Virus record (IMG/VR): IMGVR_UViG_3300030333_002512 | Span: 1-64,000 of that record | DNA from: a virus | Strand: one strand, 5' to 3' | Length of the DNA: 64,000 bases | Shown: piece after piece, positions 46,114-52,652 of the stretch | Layout of the letters: every line of letters starts with the position of its first letter | Numbering within the stretch: the stretch's first letter is position 1 | Position numbers and translations under genes: made by a program | The notes under the pieces: generated by a model | What the model was told of the DNA's origin: nothing | Database searches by the model: none | Seen by the model: only the letters and a program-made list of their open reading frames with translations

Positions 46114-46329
46114 ATGTGTTTGAGATTGAGAATAATGAACGACACTGGCCACACCACGTTGGAAGAGGTATCTGCAACCGAAATGGTTGAGCAGATAACA
46201 GACCACCCTACCCATTGGGTATATGTTGATGGAGAAATGGTAACGAGAGAAGCCATTCAGAACAACGAGATAGATTGGGCAACGGTCAACGATGTCAACT
46301 TGGTTCAGGCTATAGTCGGTGGATGCTAG
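46114..46329 (+). CDS. Ubiquitin-like (beta-grasp, ThiS/SAMP-like) protein ending GG-C
   Basis: 71 aa; WVYVDGE...VNLVQAIVGGC matches the ThiS/MoaD/SAMP C-terminal pattern with one residue after GG; AGGAGG RBS. Confidence 0.75.
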   Translation: MCLRLRIMNDTGHTTLEEVSATEMVEQITDHPTHWVYVDGEMVTREAIQNNEIDWATVNDVNLVQAIVGGC

Positions 46330-46490
46330 AACATTCCCCGATGCCGGAATAAACGTAACCCGCTAATGGGGTATATCTTTGTTAGCGGTAACTTCTAAGT
46401 AGTATCTATTCTACGCTTAGAGTCCTAAACATGGGTTAAATGTCAATTGGGTGAAAGGCCCAAAACTAAATCAAAAAAGGAGAGAAAAAT

Positions 46491-48377
46491 ATGTTATTAG
46501 AACAAGAAATATTGTCAGAATGTGTTGTAAACAATAAGTATGCAAAACACAATTCTGAAAAGAAAAGAAGAGAAACATGGAACGAAATATGTAACCGAAA
46601 TATGCAGATGCATTTAGACAAATTCGAACACCTTGGGCCTAAATTCGCTAAGAAGATTAAGAAGGTCTATAGGGAATTTGTGAAGACTAGGCTTATTGTT
46701 CCTTCAATGCGGTCATTCCAATTTGCAGGTAAGCCAATTTTACTATCACCAAATAGAATTTACAACTGTGCATATATGCCGATTGATGATACGGCTGCAT
46801 TCTCAGAAGCGATGTTCCTACTACTAGGAGGAACGGGTGTAGGTTATTCTGTTCAGAAGCATCACATCAATCAACTTCCGGAGATAAGGCAACCATCTGA
46901 GAGAACATACAGATATCTAATTGAGGATTCAATTAAGGGATGGGCAGAAGCAATCAGGATTCTATTCGATTCTTACACAGGAAAGAGAAAGACCACACCT
47001 AAGTTTGACTTCACTGAGATTAGACCATTAGGTGCGCCATTGAAGACTACAGGTGGAACGGCCCCCGGCCCTGACCCATTGGATAAGTGCCTCCATACTA
47101 TTCACAGTATGTTGAGGGGTATGCATGACGGTCACAAGATTAAGCCAATAGAAGCACACGATATGCTATGTCACATTGCTGATTCTGTATTAGCAGGTGG
47201 AATAAGGAGGGCTGCTATGATTAGCCTATTCAGTGCTGATGATGATGAGATGCTAATGGCAAAGAGTGGCACTTGGTATGAGTTGAACCCACAGAGAGGT
47301 AGGGCAAACAACTCTGTTGTCTTACTACGTCACAAGATAAAGCGAGACTTCTTCATGGATATATGGAAGAAGATTGAGATGAACAAGACCGGAGAACCGG
47401 GATTCTTCTTTACTAACGATAAGGATTGGGGAACCAACCCCTGTGCAGAAATAGCACTTAGGCCATTTCAGATGTGTAACTTGTGTTCCGTGAATGCTTC
47501 GACTGTTAAAGACCAACAGGACTTGAACGATAGAGTATCTGCTGCTTCGTTCTTAGGAACATTACAAGCAGCCTATACTGACTTCCATTATCTTAGAGAG
47601 ATATGGCAAGAGAATTGTGAAAGGGATGCTTTGCTAGGTGTTTCTCTAACAGGCATTGCAAGTAACAGGCTCAAGGATTTAGATATGAAGCAAGCAGCAG
47701 ATGTTGTTATTCAAACTAATATTGATACTGTCAACGAGATGAACGAGCAAGGATTTGAAATCAACTATTCTGCTAGGTTGACTTGTATCAAACCCGAAGG
47801 AACAACGAGTTGTGTATTGGGAACATCTAGTGGCATACACGCTTGGCATAATGATTACTACATTAGGAGAATTGAAGTTGGTCATAATGAGAAGATTCAT
47901 GATTATCTAGCCAAGAAGTTTCCTGACTTGATGGAGGAATCTAAGAGCGTAGCCAATTCGTCTTGTTTCTGCGTTCCTCAAAAAGCACCTTCAGGAGCAA
48001 TACTGAGAAACCAAGAAACCGCTTTGGATTTGCTTGAGAGAATCAAGCACTATCATGAGACTTGGGTTGTTCCCGGTCACATTGATGGGAACAATATGCA
48101 TAACATATCAGCAACGGTTAGTGTTAGAGATGATGAGTGGAAGGTAGTAGGAGATTGGCTATGGAAGAACAGGAGTTCTTACACAGGGATAACAATCATT
48201 CCTTACTTCGGTGGGACTCATCCTCAACTACCGTTTGAGGACATTAGTAAATACAAGTATGATAAGATGGTGAAGTCTCTATCTAAGATTGACTTGTCAA
48301 GAGTAAGAGAAGAGACAGACACAACAGACTTGCAGGGTGAAGTAGCATGTGGGGGTGGAAGTTGCGACATCATTTAG
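46491..48377 (+). CDS. nrdJ: Class II (B12-dependent) ribonucleotide reductase
   Basis: YNC, GGTGVG, GGIRRAA, TNPCAEI, CNL, IKPEGT, C-terminal CGGGSC; no class I beta subunit nearby. Confidence 0.88.
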   Translation: MLLEQEILSECVVNNKYAKHNSEKKRRETWNEICNRNMQMHLDKFEHLGPKFAKKIKKVYREFVKTRLIVPSMRSFQFAGKPILLSPNRIYNCAYMPIDDTAAFSEAMFLLLGGTGVGYSVQKHHINQLPEIRQPSERTYRYLIEDSIKGWAEAIRILFDSYTGKRKTTPKFDFTEIRPLGAPLKTTGGTAPGPDPLDKCLHTIHSMLRGMHDGHKIKPIEAHDMLCHIADSVLAGGIRRAAMISLFSADDDEMLMAKSGTWYELNPQRGRANNSVVLLRHKIKRDFFMDIWKKIEMNKTGEPGFFFTNDKDWGTNPCAEIALRPFQMCNLCSVNASTVKDQQDLNDRVSAASFLGTLQAAYTDFHYLREIWQENCERDALLGVSLTGIASNRLKDLDMKQAADVVIQTNIDTVNEMNEQGFEINYSARLTCIKPEGTTSCVLGTSSGIHAWHNDYYIRRIEVGHNEKIHDYLAKKFPDLMEESKSVANSSCFCVPQKAPSGAILRNQETALDLLERIKHYHETWVVPGHIDGNNMHNISATVSVRDDEWKVVGDWLWKNRSSYTGITIIPYFGGTHPQLPFEDISKYKYDKMVKSLSKIDLSRVREETDTTDLQGEVACGGGSCDII

Positions 48378-48416
48378 TGCCAAGACCATTGGTGCAACAC
48401 AACGGAGGAATTGGGG

Positions 48417-48775
48417 TGAGTAAAAGAAAACCTACCGAATCCTCCAAAGAAGACTTCATGTTCATAGAGAAAGAATTGTTGCTCTCAACTCATCCGGGTT
48501 GGAGAGATGACCTTTCCTTTCACTTTGAACTACTAAGAGAAGGGGATTGCAGTTATCCCTATCTCTATAGATTTGTCCACTTCCTAGTATTGAGTGGTTA
48601 TTCGACATTCAATACTATGGAAGATTTGTATGATGAAGTGGAAAAGAAGAGATACTACACAGAACATCCCTTCGAATCTACTGGATACAAATATAATTTT
48701 ACTGCATTCGAATTTACAAATAAATGGAATAGTGATGAAAATGAAAATAAAATATTACATACCGCAAACAAATGA
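48417..48775 (+). CDS. Hypothetical protein
   Basis: ORF between RNR and the next gene; start uncertain. Confidence 0.45.
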
Positions 48776-50051
48776 CACAAAAAGGAACGTATCAACTAGT
48801 TTTTTGTTTCAGTCTTCAAGGAAGAATATCTTCCATAGGCTTTACACCGCAAGAACTTCAACAGGACAGGTTGAATGGATATCGAAGAACGTAAACCAAT
48901 TTGGTGAGACACCAATAACAGTTGAAAGGGCTAATATCAGAACAGTCAGACAAGTGAAAGATGACCCTATGTTGGGTCTTGTTACTGAGTCCGTTAAATC
49001 TGTTCTATTTCCCGATAGAAGTAATACCGACAGGTATCTGAATCAGATTACTTTCAAGTATCCTGATGGCGAAGCCGAACTTTGGTATGGAAAAGCAGGG
49101 AATGATTCTAAGGTTTCTCTGTATGGTGGTGACCATTGGGAACCCATTAAATTCAACAAGGGAGATGCACAGAAAACTATAGCCAAGATTATTCTACGGA
49201 GTGTTTTGACTAGAAGTGCAGAAGTGATGAACGAGTATATCACTCGTTGTCTGCAAATACCGCCTAATGTTTGGTATGCTCTTGAGAACAGAAGTCCATT
49301 TCACTTCTTTCACATGGGCAACAAGCAAGACGTTCTGATTAACACTAGATTGATTGGTCAGAACATGGCTGCGTTGGAAATCTCAGAAGGAATTTGGGGG
49401 CCAATTAGTATAACTGATTTGAACACGTTCTTGAATTACCATAAGAATAACCAAGCCAAGACTAAGTTATGGAAGGTCACAGTTTCCCAACTGTGGGAGA
49501 GGTTGTTTGGTGAACCGCCAAGTGAGGGTGAAGAGAAGTTATCCATTGCATGGCTGATGCAGAACAGGACTCAAGATATGGTTGAGAACCAAGCAACTAG
49601 GTTGTTGTTCCAACTTGATAGGGAGTATGAAAGAATTGAGTTTGTTCAATTCAAGAACCCAAGCAACAGAGCCTTGTTCGTTAGAGGAAAGGTATTCGAT
49701 TGGGTAATTGCCGATGAAGGTGGTGGAATGAAGAGAGGTCACCAAGCAGTGAACACCTACAGGATTTCAGGTAAAGGTGATACATGGAAGGATTGTAGTC
49801 TGACAGGGCCAATCTGCATTGATAACCTACATGACAATGCCAGTATTGGTGACCAACTCAGTGCTAGGGCGTTGATTCTGATGAATGATGATATGGCAGG
49901 GCCATTAATCTATACAATCAGGCAGACTATTGAGGCTCAAAAGAAGACTGGTGCAGAAGGACATCGCCTAGATGTTAGGAAGTTGAACAAGTGGTCTGAG
50001 AAGGCTGCTATTAAGTGGGCGCAGAAACAAGCGGCGGCGGTGGCCAAGTAA
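48741..50051 (+). CDS. Hypothetical protein with possible C-terminal E2/UBC-like domain
   Basis: GHQAVN...GPICIDNL...DQLSARALILMND resembles the UBC HPN...GxICLDxL...helix; confidence reflects the E2 call. Confidence 0.45.
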   Translation: MKIKYYIPQTNDTKRNVSTSFLFQSSRKNIFHRLYTARTSTGQVEWISKNVNQFGETPITVERANIRTVRQVKDDPMLGLVTESVKSVLFPDRSNTDRYLNQITFKYPDGEAELWYGKAGNDSKVSLYGGDHWEPIKFNKGDAQKTIAKIILRSVLTRSAEVMNEYITRCLQIPPNVWYALENRSPFHFFHMGNKQDVLINTRLIGQNMAALEISEGIWGPISITDLNTFLNYHKNNQAKTKLWKVTVSQLWERLFGEPPSEGEEKLSIAWLMQNRTQDMVENQATRLLFQLDREYERIEFVQFKNPSNRALFVRGKVFDWVIADEGGGMKRGHQAVNTYRISGKGDTWKDCSLTGPICIDNLHDNASIGDQLSARALILMNDDMAGPLIYTIRQTIEAQKKTGAEGHRLDVRKLNKWSEKAAIKWAQKQAAAVAK

Positions 50052-50983
50052 TGAAGTGTAGAGAATGTGGTTGTCATGAAACCACTATTCATTTTGACAG
50101 ACACGAAGTTGTCTGCAATGGATGTGGGCATGTCAAATCAGTATTAATGGATAAGTGGACAAAGAACGAGGATGACGGTAAGAACACGACACCCGATACT
50201 TGGAACGCCTATTCCGATGCGTTAGGTTCACATATCTTTTCAATGGAAGCAAGAAGAACCAAGAGTGCTACAGGGCAGATGAATAGGATGAGAAACATAC
50301 ACAGAAGAAAACGTAGAACCCGCAGGTCAATGGACAAGTTTCAGACTGAGATTGCTATGGTTCTTTCTAGATATTCAACATATCAATCAAAAGACACGAA
50401 GTTATTGCAGGTATCCTTGGATAATTACAAGAGATTGCAAGAGCATCACAAGTTAGATGGTATATCCCTAGAGCAAAGAGCCGCAGCATTGTCTTACTAT
50501 GTCCTAAAGGAATTAGGATATGATGTGAATCTTAGACATCATTCTAAGATAACCCTTGTAGAAGCAGGGACAATATCTAGGATATCAAAAAGGATTGCTA
50601 AGTTTTTTCGCAACCCACAGGTATTCGCACAAAATGATGCGGTGAATAACGCAAAGACGATTCTGGAAAAACTGCTTGGTGTAGAGCCATCTGAATTTAG
50701 AGAATCGTGTATCTCATTTGTTGCTTATGTAGAGAGACTACTTGATGCAGTTGATGAGAGAATGACTAACAATCTTCTAGTTGCTACGGTGTGGATAGCA
50801 AGTAGATTAGAGAAACAAAAATTCACACAAGAAGAAATTTGCTCCCTTTGGCCATCCTCTATATATGGCATGAGAAAAGGAGCGACCTATCTATGTGAGA
50901 AACTAGGAATAGATAGAAAGGAACTTGCAACCATAGGGCATGGTTACGAGATGAACAAAATAATAGGAGGAATAAGAATATGA
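50051..50983 (+). CDS. tfb: TFIIB/TFB-like transcription factor
   Basis: N-terminal Zn ribbon CRECG...VVCNGCG followed by two cyclin-like repeats (AAALSYY..., LVATVWIAS...FTQEEI). Confidence 0.8.
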   Translation: MKCRECGCHETTIHFDRHEVVCNGCGHVKSVLMDKWTKNEDDGKNTTPDTWNAYSDALGSHIFSMEARRTKSATGQMNRMRNIHRRKRRTRRSMDKFQTEIAMVLSRYSTYQSKDTKLLQVSLDNYKRLQEHHKLDGISLEQRAAALSYYVLKELGYDVNLRHHSKITLVEAGTISRISKRIAKFFRNPQVFAQNDAVNNAKTILEKLLGVEPSEFRESCISFVAYVERLLDAVDERMTNNLLVATVWIASRLEKQKFTQEEICSLWPSSIYGMRKGATYLCEKLGIDRKELATIGHGYEMNKIIGGIRI

Positions 50984-51192
50984 AAAGAATGAGTGTAAGA
51001 ACAACAAGTGGACAAACAATGATGGATTTGGATAAGGTTAGTGCCTTTACCATAAATAAGAAAGAGAAGCCAATGTTAGGTAATCCTGTATGGGAAATAG
51101 ATATCCATATGGATAACGGGACTATCTTTACTGCAACTCTTACTGAGACTGAGAAGATAATCTTCGAAAGCAAGTGGAGTGGTGAAGAATGA
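50980..51192 (+). CDS. Small beta-rich hypothetical protein
   Basis: 70 aa, coupled. Confidence 0.6.
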   Translation: MKRMSVRTTSGQTMMDLDKVSAFTINKKEKPMLGNPVWEIDIHMDNGTIFTATLTETEKIIFESKWSGEE

Positions 51193-51779
51193 GAAAGGTG
51201 ATGCTAATTGGAGCAGGTGGTATTGGGAGTTACTTAGCAGACTTCTTGTCAAGAATAAACCATGCCAAGACAGGTAAGTTGTATTCCTTGACAGTGTTTG
51301 ATGATGATAAGATAGAAACAAAGAATCTATCCTATCAGAACTTTCACCCCGATGAAGTGGGTAAACATAAGGTGATGTCATTATATGACAAGTTCGAATG
51401 TGATGCTGAACCCTATCCTGTATTGGTCAAGGAGCAACTAAAGGGATATGACTTGGTTGTTTGTTGTGCTGATAACCTAGCAGTGAGGAGACTACTGTAT
51501 CGTCAAGGATATGGGGAAGAAGCCGAGATTAAGTGGTTAGACCTTAGAGCGCAAGCAAGAAACGCTGCATTAATATCATACAAGACAGATGCAAATTTAG
51601 TTGATACATTCCTAAGTGGCCCCGAAGGTTCCTTCTCTTGTCAAGGAGGAGATTGGGATGGCTCAGGAAAAGACATCAATACAATGCACATGGCCATAGC
51701 AGGTATTGCTACACAGTGGATACAAAGATGGTTCGTGGATAATGATGATGTAGCCGATAAGATGGTGATAAACGTATGA
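51189..51779 (+). CDS. E1/ThiF-family adenylyltransferase
   Basis: IGAGGIGS, FDDDKIETKNLSYQ, GKHK, CADN..VR, putative catalytic Cys in GSFSCQ. Confidence 0.9.
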   Translation: MRKVMLIGAGGIGSYLADFLSRINHAKTGKLYSLTVFDDDKIETKNLSYQNFHPDEVGKHKVMSLYDKFECDAEPYPVLVKEQLKGYDLVVCCADNLAVRRLLYRQGYGEEAEIKWLDLRAQARNAALISYKTDANLVDTFLSGPEGSFSCQGGDWDGSGKDINTMHMAIAGIATQWIQRWFVDNDDVADKMVINV

Positions 51780-52018
51780 GTAAGGAAGACGCAGATATAG
51801 ATGACCTAACAGAAGAAGACTTGGAGAAAGTGATGAACATTATCTCCACTGATGGATATTATATCCAAGCCGAGATAGTGCAAGTGACCTGTCCGGTTTG
51901 TGGAGAGGAGTTCTTAGGAACGAAAAGACATGCAGGTGGTTTCATTGCGGGACACGAAGCATATCATGAATTTATCAACAAGCAGGATTTGATAATGGTA
52001 AATTTAGGAGGACAATAA
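51776..52018 (+). CDS. C2H2 Zn-finger protein
   Basis: CPVC...HEAYH; acidic N-terminus. Confidence 0.65.
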   Translation: MSKEDADIDDLTEEDLEKVMNIISTDGYYIQAEIVQVTCPVCGEEFLGTKRHAGGFIAGHEAYHEFINKQDLIMVNLGGQ

Positions 52019-52019
52019 A

Positions 52020-52652
52020 ATGGGAAGAATGAGTGACAAATATATTGAGGAGATGGAAAAGATGAACGGAAGAGAAGAAGATGGATATGAAGAATGGAGA
52101 GTAGATGAGGCCTATGAGAAATCAGCAGGTGCTAAGATACCGGAGTGGAAGGCCAACATTAGAGAGGCTTTCCATACAGTAGGATACAAGCCACCACATA
52201 TCGTAAAGGATGTATTGGTGAATAGCAGATTCATGGAGTATTTGTATCCCGATAACGCGGGTGAATACTTCTTTACCACTATTTGGGACATGTCAATGAA
52301 TGCCTTTAACACACCTAGAGAGGTTCAAGTTGTAGTGGATGATGAATACAATCTATTCATCAGTGCGGGAACAACGAGTTTCGTATCATTTGACGATGAT
52401 GAGGAACAGTTGGCTGGAATGAAGTTGCCTATTCGATGTTGGATACACACGCATCCAATGGGTAAGGCCTTCTTCAGTGGCACTGATTGGAGGACAATTA
52501 ATACATGGAGGCCGATTATGAAATCGGCTGTAGTCTTAGGAGACAATCAATACCTAGCATATGATTGCAAAACAGAAATTTGCAAGCATGTGTTTTATGG
52601 TATTTATGAACAACCGAATGCAAAGAAAATAGGAGGAAATGAAGATGAATGA
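52020..52652 (+). CDS. JAB/MPN+ metallo-isopeptidase
   Basis: E (REVQVVV)...WIHTHP...FSGTD gives E-xn-HxH-x7-S-x2-D. Confidence 0.88.
   Translation: MGRMSDKYIEEMEKMNGREEDGYEEWRVDEAYEKSAGAKIPEWKANIREAFHTVGYKPPHIVKDVLVNSRFMEYLYPDNAGEYFFTTIWDMSMNAFNTPREVQVVVDDEYNLFISAGTTSFVSFDDDEEQLAGMKLPIRCWIHTHPMGKAFFSGTDWRTINTWRPIMKSAVVLGDNQYLAYDCKTEICKHVFYGIYEQPNAKKIGGNEDE

Follow-up and report, generated by a model that had tools for sequence, protein, structure and literature searches.

A probable virus-encoded ubiquitin-like conjugation and deconjugation pathway in an ocean virus of Marine Group II archaea

The DNA analysed here, referred to below as the window, is a stretch of 64,000 nucleotides (nt) comprising positions 1 to 64,000 of IMG/VR virus record IMGVR_UViG_3300030333_002512, an ocean virus of Marine Group II archaea (a magrovirus) whose record is 77,125 bp long, with a completeness of 82% as estimated by CheckV. 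Between positions 46,114 and 52,652 of the window, in the rightward replication arm of a record that also encodes a phage-type portal, a UvrD-like helicase, a class II ribonucleotide reductase (RNR) and an ATP-dependent ligase, lie genes for a ubiquitin-like protein (Ubl), an E2-like protein, a small E1-like adenylating enzyme, an 80-amino-acid (aa) zinc-finger protein that we call Zn80, and a JAB metalloprotease. All are read from the plus strand, in the order Ubl, RNR, an open reading frame (ORF) of 142 aa, the ORF at 48594-50051 that holds the E2-like gene, a TFB-like gene, an ORF of 70 aa, E1, Zn80 and JAB (Table 1). A first-pass annotation of the sequence had proposed that these genes form a protein-tagging pathway related to ubiquitination, and it gave the strand and positions of the five ORFs of this kit as we find them.

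The Ubl gene had been described as encoding a 71-aa beta-grasp protein that ends in Gly-Gly and a cysteine, and this description holds. An AlphaFold2 model made from an alignment of 38 homologues (pLDDT 84.6) has the element order beta-beta-alpha-beta-beta-(alpha)-beta, which is that of the beta-grasp fold. The best 50 Foldseek matches of the model in the PDB were all ubiquitin, ISG15, NEDD8, SUMO or UBL/Ras-binding-type domains (probabilities 0.90-0.99, E values of about 5e-3), and an exhaustive VIA structure search returned mostly beta-grasp chains (Z 4.0-5.7), including the Ddi1 UBL, Fubi, MoaD, ThiS, CysO, SAMP1, a Bil-type Ubl (8tyz_B) and BubA. No curated family in Pfam, NCBIfam, PHROG or PADLOC matched the protein, and a search of the PDB with the 38-sequence profile matched no Ubl.

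The C-terminus of the Ubl in the window reads AIVGG-C, and the Gly-Gly is invariant in 49 distinct homologues drawn from 57 loci. Neither Lys nor Arg occurs among the final 25 residues of the protein. Nothing follows it in three of the 49, and in the others it is followed by one to three residues of 17 different kinds. The two glycine codons vary freely across homologues and no gene start lies nearby downstream, indicating that the constraint on Gly-Gly acts on the protein; judged from the sequences, the pattern fits a modifier whose precursor carries a cap. The true start of the gene is probably TTG 46120, giving a protein of 69 aa rather than the 71 aa read from ATG 46114, since a Shine-Dalgarno-like GGAGG lies 7 nt upstream of the TTG and the length then equals that of the homologues.

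The E1 protein passed the Pfam ThiF cut-off (52.2 bits, 6.1e-14, cut-off 28.1), with a match limited to residues 3-108, and its best named family was NCBIfam PRTRC_ThiF (TIGR03736; 58.4 bits, 6.4e-16), with a score below the cut-off of 144.75. A profile of 17 sequences aligned positions 3-105 with Cap2, MoeB, Uba4, UBA5 and Uba1 in the PDB, the top match being the E1 domain of Cap2 (6.1e-11); PADLOC 'E1-E2' models matched at 1.5e-9, and the UbaA model (NF047750) gave 33.4 bits against a cut-off of 450. Invariant in the family are GxGGxG (G8/G10/G11/G13), D38, D40, K61, D95 and Cys151, and the features of a Rossmann adenylation domain, namely GxGxxG, the ribose-binding Asp, the Lys, and the Mg-binding Asp of xDN, are all present. 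Cys151, in the motif GSFSCQ, is the candidate catalytic cysteine that had been reported for this protein, and the SCQ cysteine was kept in 10 of 10 host and other-virus relatives checked, fused forms included. The C-terminal 90 residues are specific to the family and hold no CxxC zinc pairs. More than 637 homologues of 187-224 aa were found in marine metagenomes. Elsewhere among viruses, crAss-like phages encode a 383-aa ThiF-family protein with about 30% identity to the viral E1 over the first 100 residues, and its gene directly follows one annotated as encoding a metalloprotease-domain protein, in the replication module (Bacteroides phage crAss001, MH675552.1 81394-83792; our locus L021).

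The JAB protein has the intact E..HxH..S..D motif that had been noted for it, as Glu101 (REVQ) and H143-T-H145-x7-S153-x2-D156, which align to the zinc site of AMSH/STAMBP in the PDB, and this zinc motif is kept in 66 homologues. Its score against Pfam Prok-JAB was 19.5, below the cut-off of 25. In all loci JAB stands directly after E1 or Zn80, or is separated from them by variable inserts. A C2H2 finger between E1 and JAB was likewise confirmed: Zn80 carries a conserved C2H2-type CPxC-x16-HxxxH behind an acidic N-terminus, its start overlaps the stop of E1, and its stop lies 1 nt ahead of the JAB start. Zn80 is present in 38 of the 50 magrovirus loci that span the region and is absent from a divergent clade in which E1 abuts JAB. 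The ESM Atlas holds it in unnamed, virus-only clusters, and we regard it as an accessory part of uncertain role. That Zn80 is a zinc-binding C-terminus split off from E1 was considered and rejected, as E1 length is unchanged in the clade without Zn80.

The motif GPICIDNL, described as UBC-like in the first-pass annotation, lies in ORF 48594-50051, whose start, judged from homologues and from overlaps between genes, is near 48735/48741, giving 436-438 aa. In an AlphaFold2 model made from 40 sequences (pLDDT 87.1), the N-terminal 260 residues (window 48741-49520) form two or three confidently folded alpha/beta units, and the last 170 form a long helix (H277-295), four strands (E299-343), a loop with Cys359, and three to four further helices (H369-435), which in the model is the element order of a UBC domain. 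Cys359 is invariant in the 40 sequences, where it sits in GPIC(I/V)D, a motif that we take to resemble the Cys loop of UBC domains, and an invariant GDQ...R...ND helix follows. In an exhaustive VIA search, residues 270-415 matched about 25 E2, UEV, RWD and FANCL chains among the best 50, such as 4ccg_A (Z 5.2, 116 residues) and 3fn1_B (Z 5.0, 122 residues), which at modest Z values and for a model of more than 400 residues is a fold-level indication, not proof. Foldseek on the whole 436-aa model returned mostly noise, with one E2 at rank 45. No Pfam, NCBIfam, PHROG or PADLOC family matched the domain, the ESM Atlas gave nothing usable, and an exhaustive HMMER search, run against 1.84 billion representatives, turned up a family of only 163 members, the full-length ones all of the same architecture. 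One RWD domain and one tandem-RWD chain aligned to the protein from residue 179 on, so ahead of the domain with the Cys there may be a UBC/RWD-like repeat that is inactive.

The co-occurrence of these genes across magroviruses, which had been offered as a check on the proposed pathway, is complete: Ubl, E2-like protein, E1 and JAB, together with TFB, are present in all 50 loci that span the region. Local linkage of this kind proves little, because the entire replication arm is collinear in all relatives; in 81 relatives from IMG/VR the collinear stretch runs from about 2 kb upstream of Ubl to the ligase (about 43.8 to 56.4 kb).

The same four families were also found contiguous or fused outside magroviruses, in compact operons on other contigs binned with Poseidoniales genomes, and this arrangement argues for a functional linkage that is independent of the collinear arm. 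Contig L224 has the order E2like-E2like-Ubl-E1-JAB, and L226 and L228 have E2like-Ubl...E1-JAB. On contig L222 (4789-6063) two Ubl units and E1 are fused in one protein of 424 aa, followed by JAB, with the Gly-Gly of the second Ubl about ten residues ahead of the nucleotide-binding loop of E1, and L223 (465-1733) and L227 (978-2207) each have a Ubl gene and then one in which E1 is fused to JAB, encoding 422 and 409 aa, respectively. The L224 contig (1-8221), binned in a Poseidoniales metagenome-assembled genome (MAG), encodes a T7-like single-subunit RNA polymerase, then the kit operon, then an AAA ATPase. Given the polymerase, this contig is probably another virus lineage with a compact kit.

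Homologues of the kit are also encoded by the hosts. Poseidoniales host genomes were reached with the Eury806 16S probe; a search of GTDB genomes with one viral family alignment had returned only three magrovirus-like contigs (L084-L086) and no host copies. Three Poseidoniales/Poseidoniaceae genomes, including a 2.06-Mb Marine Group II chromosome, encode an E1 of 217-247 aa that aligns with positions 3-176 of the 192 in the viral profile (E values of about 1e-24 to 5e-19), followed directly by a homologous JAB; longer host E1 homologues of 391-411 aa are distinct from this short viral-type E1. The same genomes hold polyubiquitin-like ORFs with two or three Ubl units of the viral family in tandem; every unit ends PG(I/L)VGG, and the last has a short tail. 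One host genome also encodes a protein of 247 aa that carries the signature ICIN...IGDRL...LRND of the E2-like domain (E value 3e-7). Of 201 Poseidoniales genomes sampled for the Ubl family, 110 had it, and of 101 sampled for the viral-type E1, 55 had that enzyme. At the level of sequence, the viral kit is thus homologous to a dispersed Poseidoniales system consisting of a poly-Ubl, an E1-JAB pair and an E2-like protein, and because of this homology viral and host parts may cross-react. In two of the host genomes (loci L214 and L215) the gene just downstream of the poly-Ubl gene, read from the same strand, encodes an RFC-like AAA+ clamp loader. This neighbour and the position of the viral kit in the replication arm are a hint at most toward replication.

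Table 1. Coordinates of the kit genes, of the two named neighbours within the interval, and of the host polyubiquitin-like ORFs
Feature	Position	Strand	Details
Ubl precursor	46114..46329	+	beta-grasp; Gly-Gly 46318-46323; one-residue Cys cap 46324-46326
E2-like protein, ~436 aa	48741..50051	+	predicted UBC/UEV/RWD-fold domain, ~residues 270-415 (nt 49548-49985); Cys359 at 49815-49817
Minimal E1-like adenylating enzyme, 196 aa	51189..51779	+	GAGGIGS 51210-51230; Asp95 in CCADN 51462-51476; candidate catalytic Cys151 in GSFSCQ 51627-51644
Acidic C2H2-type zinc-finger protein Zn80, 80 aa	51776..52018	+	CPVC 51890-51901; HEAYH 51953-51967; C-terminus LGG-Q
JAB/JAMM metalloprotease, 210 aa	52020..52652	+	Glu101 in REVQ 52317-52328; HTHP 52446-52457; SGTD 52476-52487
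Class II (B12-dependent, RTPR-like) RNR	46491..48377	+	NCBIfam TIGR02505, 8.4e-67; inside the interval, outside the system
Divergent TFB-like protein	50015..50983	+	weak TFIIB matches; conserved neighbour between E2-like gene and E1 in magroviruses
Polyubiquitin-like ORFs	L215:1492-2139; L214:1483-1920	-	Poseidoniales chromosomes

With the compact operons, the fusions and the host homologues as the decisive evidence, the best-supported reading is the one first put forward from the sequence, and we consider it likely that the virus encodes a pathway for both conjugation and deconjugation of a Ubl, closest to the bacterial Bil and Bub systems. The complement of genes suggests that the virus probably tags proteins itself. 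The Bil scheme has been shown experimentally: the BilC deubiquitinase pre-processes the Ubl, and E1 and E2 conjugate it to lysines (PMC10557695). By analogy, and from the pattern of Ubl C-termini, the JAB protease would remove the one-residue Cys cap that follows Gly-Gly in the Ubl precursor, and it may also reverse conjugates. Homology suggests that the minimal E1, probably as a homodimer, would then adenylate the exposed C-terminal glycine, and a thioester between the Ubl and Cys151, which is invariant in the family, may follow. From there the Ubl would pass to Cys359 of the UBC-fold domain, a step suggested by the predicted fold and by the conservation of this residue; the N-terminal domains of the 436-aa protein could choose the targets, which would make it a hybrid of E2 and E3. 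The putative last step is attachment of the Ubl to host or viral proteins during infection.

Several observations weigh against this reading. The E1 is smaller than the description 'complete ThiF/E1' in the first-pass annotation implied: at 196 aa it begins at strand 1, so that the Arg-finger helix of the N-terminus is lacking; where MoeB has the Arg of NLQRQ, it has Tyr49, and its relatives from the host and from other viruses have His; and neither CxxC pairs nor the C-terminal subdomain with which MoeB binds the Ubl are present. As the helix, the NLxRQ Arg and the subdomain are absent, activity of the E1 is not assured. For the E2-like protein the predicted UBC-type fold and the invariant Cys stood, and a link by sequence to known E2 enzymes did not: none of 40 members matched an E2 family in Pfam, a profile search of the PDB found none, no HPN motif was recognisable in the domain, and the structural matches were modest (VIA Z 3.9-5.5, with up to 122 residues aligned). 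In the window the kit genes are spread over 6.5 kb of the collinear arm. The co-occurrence of Ubl and E1 in host genomes (both in 53 genomes, neither in 44, four discordant) is confounded by phylogeny.

A bolder form of the proposal, on which we are evenly divided, is that magroviruses and Poseidoniales both run a true E1-E2 Ubl cascade in which a miniature E1 of one domain works with a UBC-fold family that is new, the tag of the host coming from its polyubiquitin-like genes, and that the virus would use its full copy to tag host or viral proteins, possibly replication proteins. The host homologues also invite a different explanation, in which the viral proteins would interfere with the host Ubl system; for example, JAB would strip or over-process the host poly-Ubl and its conjugates, the viral Ubl would act as a decoy, or E1 and E2 would redirect the host Ubl, with the 436-aa protein as a non-catalytic RWD-like adaptor. 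Host chromosomes do encode the homologous poly-Ubl and E1-JAB pair, and in one genome the E2-like protein; about half of the Poseidoniales genomes sampled carry homologues; and chains of the inactive, E2-like RWD and UEV types match the predicted fold as well as active E2s do. However, all four parts, including a Ubl of the virus's own with its Gly-Gly, are kept in every one of the 50 spanning relatives, other viruses probably have the complete operon, and the invariant cysteine of the E2-like domain, as far as conservation can indicate, argues for catalysis, so we regard interference as unlikely.

Somewhat more doubtful still is a role in sulfur transfer, in which E1 would make only a Ubl thiocarboxylate, in the manner of ThiS, MoaD, CysO or QbsE, for a host sulfur-insertion enzyme, and JAB would trim the cap (as QbsD) or release the product (as Mec+). 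In the QbsE/QbsD and CysO/Mec+ systems, capped sulfur carriers work together with JAB enzymes. MoeB and Uba4 are among the nearest named relatives of the E1 after PRTRC_ThiF and ThiF, and the structures matched by the Ubl include MoaD, ThiS and CysO. Operons of class 4e, in which a ThiS/MoaD protein, JAB and E1 are joined with sulfur-metabolism genes (Iyer et al. 2006, PMC1779556), also count in favour of such a role. Against it, Pfam scans of the whole 77-kb record for rhodanese, PP-loop ATPase (ATP_bind_3), MoaE and ThiS were empty, in line with the earlier statement that enzymes of thiamine, molybdenum cofactor and tRNA-thiolation pathways are lacking from the window. The compact operons carry the E2-like Cys protein rather than sulfur enzymes, and poly-Ubl genes, like fusions of Ubl with E1 or of E1 with JAB, are characteristic of classes 6d and 6e, which are of the conjugation type. 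That the Ubl-like protein, the 436-aa protein and the E1-JAB pair are unrelated neighbours with separate roles, joined only by a syntenic arm in which RNR, the 142-aa ORF, TFB and the 70-aa ORF lie between them, is very improbable, as the families are contiguous or fused on independent contigs, one of them probably from a different virus, with a T7-like RNA polymerase.

By its list of parts, the viral conjugation kit belongs to the world of classes 6d and 6e of Iyer, Burroughs and Aravind, which are the Bil and Bub systems (PMC1779556), yet it fails the defining features of each. Like Bil, it has a Ubl with a C-terminal extension and, as predicted counterparts, a glycine-exposing JAB deubiquitinase, an E1 and an E2 with a catalytic cysteine; a Bil-type Ubl (8tyz_B) matches the viral Ubl in structure; and relatives on L224, L226 and L228 have the genes contiguous in a compact operon of that kind, whereas in the window they are dispersed. 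Unlike the Bil E1, which has an inactive and an active adenylation domain and a mobile helical CYS domain (PMC10557695), the viral E1 is a single domain. The viral E2-like domain differs in being the C-terminus of a multidomain protein from a narrow family that no sequence match connects with Bil E2, and the kit belongs to a virus of archaea, not to a bacterial defence island. Shared with Bub are poly-Ubl genes (here in the host), a small homodimer-type E1, a structural match between BubA and the viral Ubl, a fusion of peptidase and E1 (on L223 and L227 as E1-JAB, in the opposite order), and the accompanying zinc-binding protein of class 6e (PMC1779556). Bub, however, uses oxyester intermediates and an E1 without a catalytic cysteine (PMC11601596), whereas Cys151 and Cys359 are both invariant in the viral proteins.

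The comparison with CBASS Cap2/Cap3 is favoured by the Cap2 E1 domain, the top PDB match of the viral E1, and by the presence of a JAB partner. The viral kit differs in having no CD-NTase substrate, in its unfused E2 and E1, in the restriction of the match to the Rossmann half of E1, and in its beta-grasp Ubl. The SAMP/UbaA/JAMM1 system likewise has an archaeal setting, an E1, a JAMM protease and a beta-grasp Ubl that ends in Gly-Gly, and SAMP1 was one of the structural matches of the viral Ubl. An E2 is not known to be required for sampylation, and its activating enzyme UbaA is a complete E1 of the MoeB type, against whose model the viral protein scored far below the cut-off. PRTRC systems offer the best-scoring named family for the viral E1, but this score too fell short, and a scan of ten ORFs turned up no further PRTRC protein.

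Systems that combine Ubl, E1, E2 and JAB are known from eukaryotes and, since 2023-24, from bacterial antiphage islands (Bil, Bub and CBASS Cap2/Cap3). The same logic now appears in abundant ocean viruses of archaea, where no relative spanning the region lacks it, and homologues, polyubiquitin-like genes included, occur in about half of the host genomes sampled. What is new here is a Ubl kit that is encoded by a virus, in an archaeal setting, with a miniature E1 and a UBC-fold family not filed in any database searched. We found no paper describing the kit and none that combines 'magroviruses' and 'ubiquitin'; a MoeB/ThiF gene in archaeal viruses is the subject of a passing remark (PMC8276007), the main texts of three magrovirus papers do not mention ThiF, JAB or ubiquitin, and the papers found on Poseidoniales and ubiquitin, judged by their titles and abstracts, describe no such system. 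If the pathway is active, viruses of archaea would use protein tagging as a tool of infection, the E1 would be the smallest yet proposed for such a cascade, and the E2-like family would be new. A virus of the archaeal world would then encode a system of the ubiquitination type, an E2-dependent pathway would exist among archaea other than the Asgard group and Caldiarchaeum, and a route would open to the study of protein tagging in uncultured Marine Group II archaea.

Zn80 has a tail that resembles that of a modifier, with Gly-Gly and exactly one further residue at 41 of 42 distinct gene ends (loci L001-L082). Its glycine codons are GGA GGA in 27 of these ends and GGA GGG in two, and so spell GGAGG; the ATG of the next gene lies within 0-4 nt of the Zn80 stop in every locus, with GGAGG about 7 nt ahead of it (window 52004-52022). 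The fixed one-residue tail can thus be explained by GGAGG keeping its Shine-Dalgarno spacing to the next ATG, and the most divergent Zn80 (L082) has no Gly-Gly yet keeps GGAGG in another frame. Four ends that use GGT GGT or GGC GGT still encode Gly-Gly, which counts against a pure ribosome-site explanation. From these codon patterns it appears that the conserved tail may be a Shine-Dalgarno site read as protein, and that Zn80 carries a genuine modifier-like tail seems the less probable alternative, though one with some chance of being correct.

The RNR and TFB genes, which the first-pass annotation placed inside the cluster and named as possible targets of tagging, are better described as neighbours by arm collinearity. 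RNR is found in 34 of the 50 spanning loci and is missing from the 16 others, all of which keep the four kit genes, and neither RNR nor TFB occurs in the compact operons L222-L228; both were therefore rejected as parts of the system, TFB despite its presence in all 50 magrovirus loci. None of the observations marks either protein as a target, and none favours the other roles first suggested, delivery of host proteins to the proteasome and a counter to host defence. The 70-aa ORF (window 50980-51192) lies either before E1 or after JAB in relatives. In many relatives (L003-L008, L022-L054) the gap between E1 and Zn80 or between Zn80 and JAB holds 0.2-1.6 kb of extra DNA, and this spot tolerates variable cargo. 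Magrovirus-type synteny (RNR, E2-like protein, TFB, E1, JAB and ligase) was also seen in bacterial MAGs in GTDB, namely L084, L085 (a Maricaulis MAG) and L086 (an Altibacter MAG), where mis-binning is the most likely cause.

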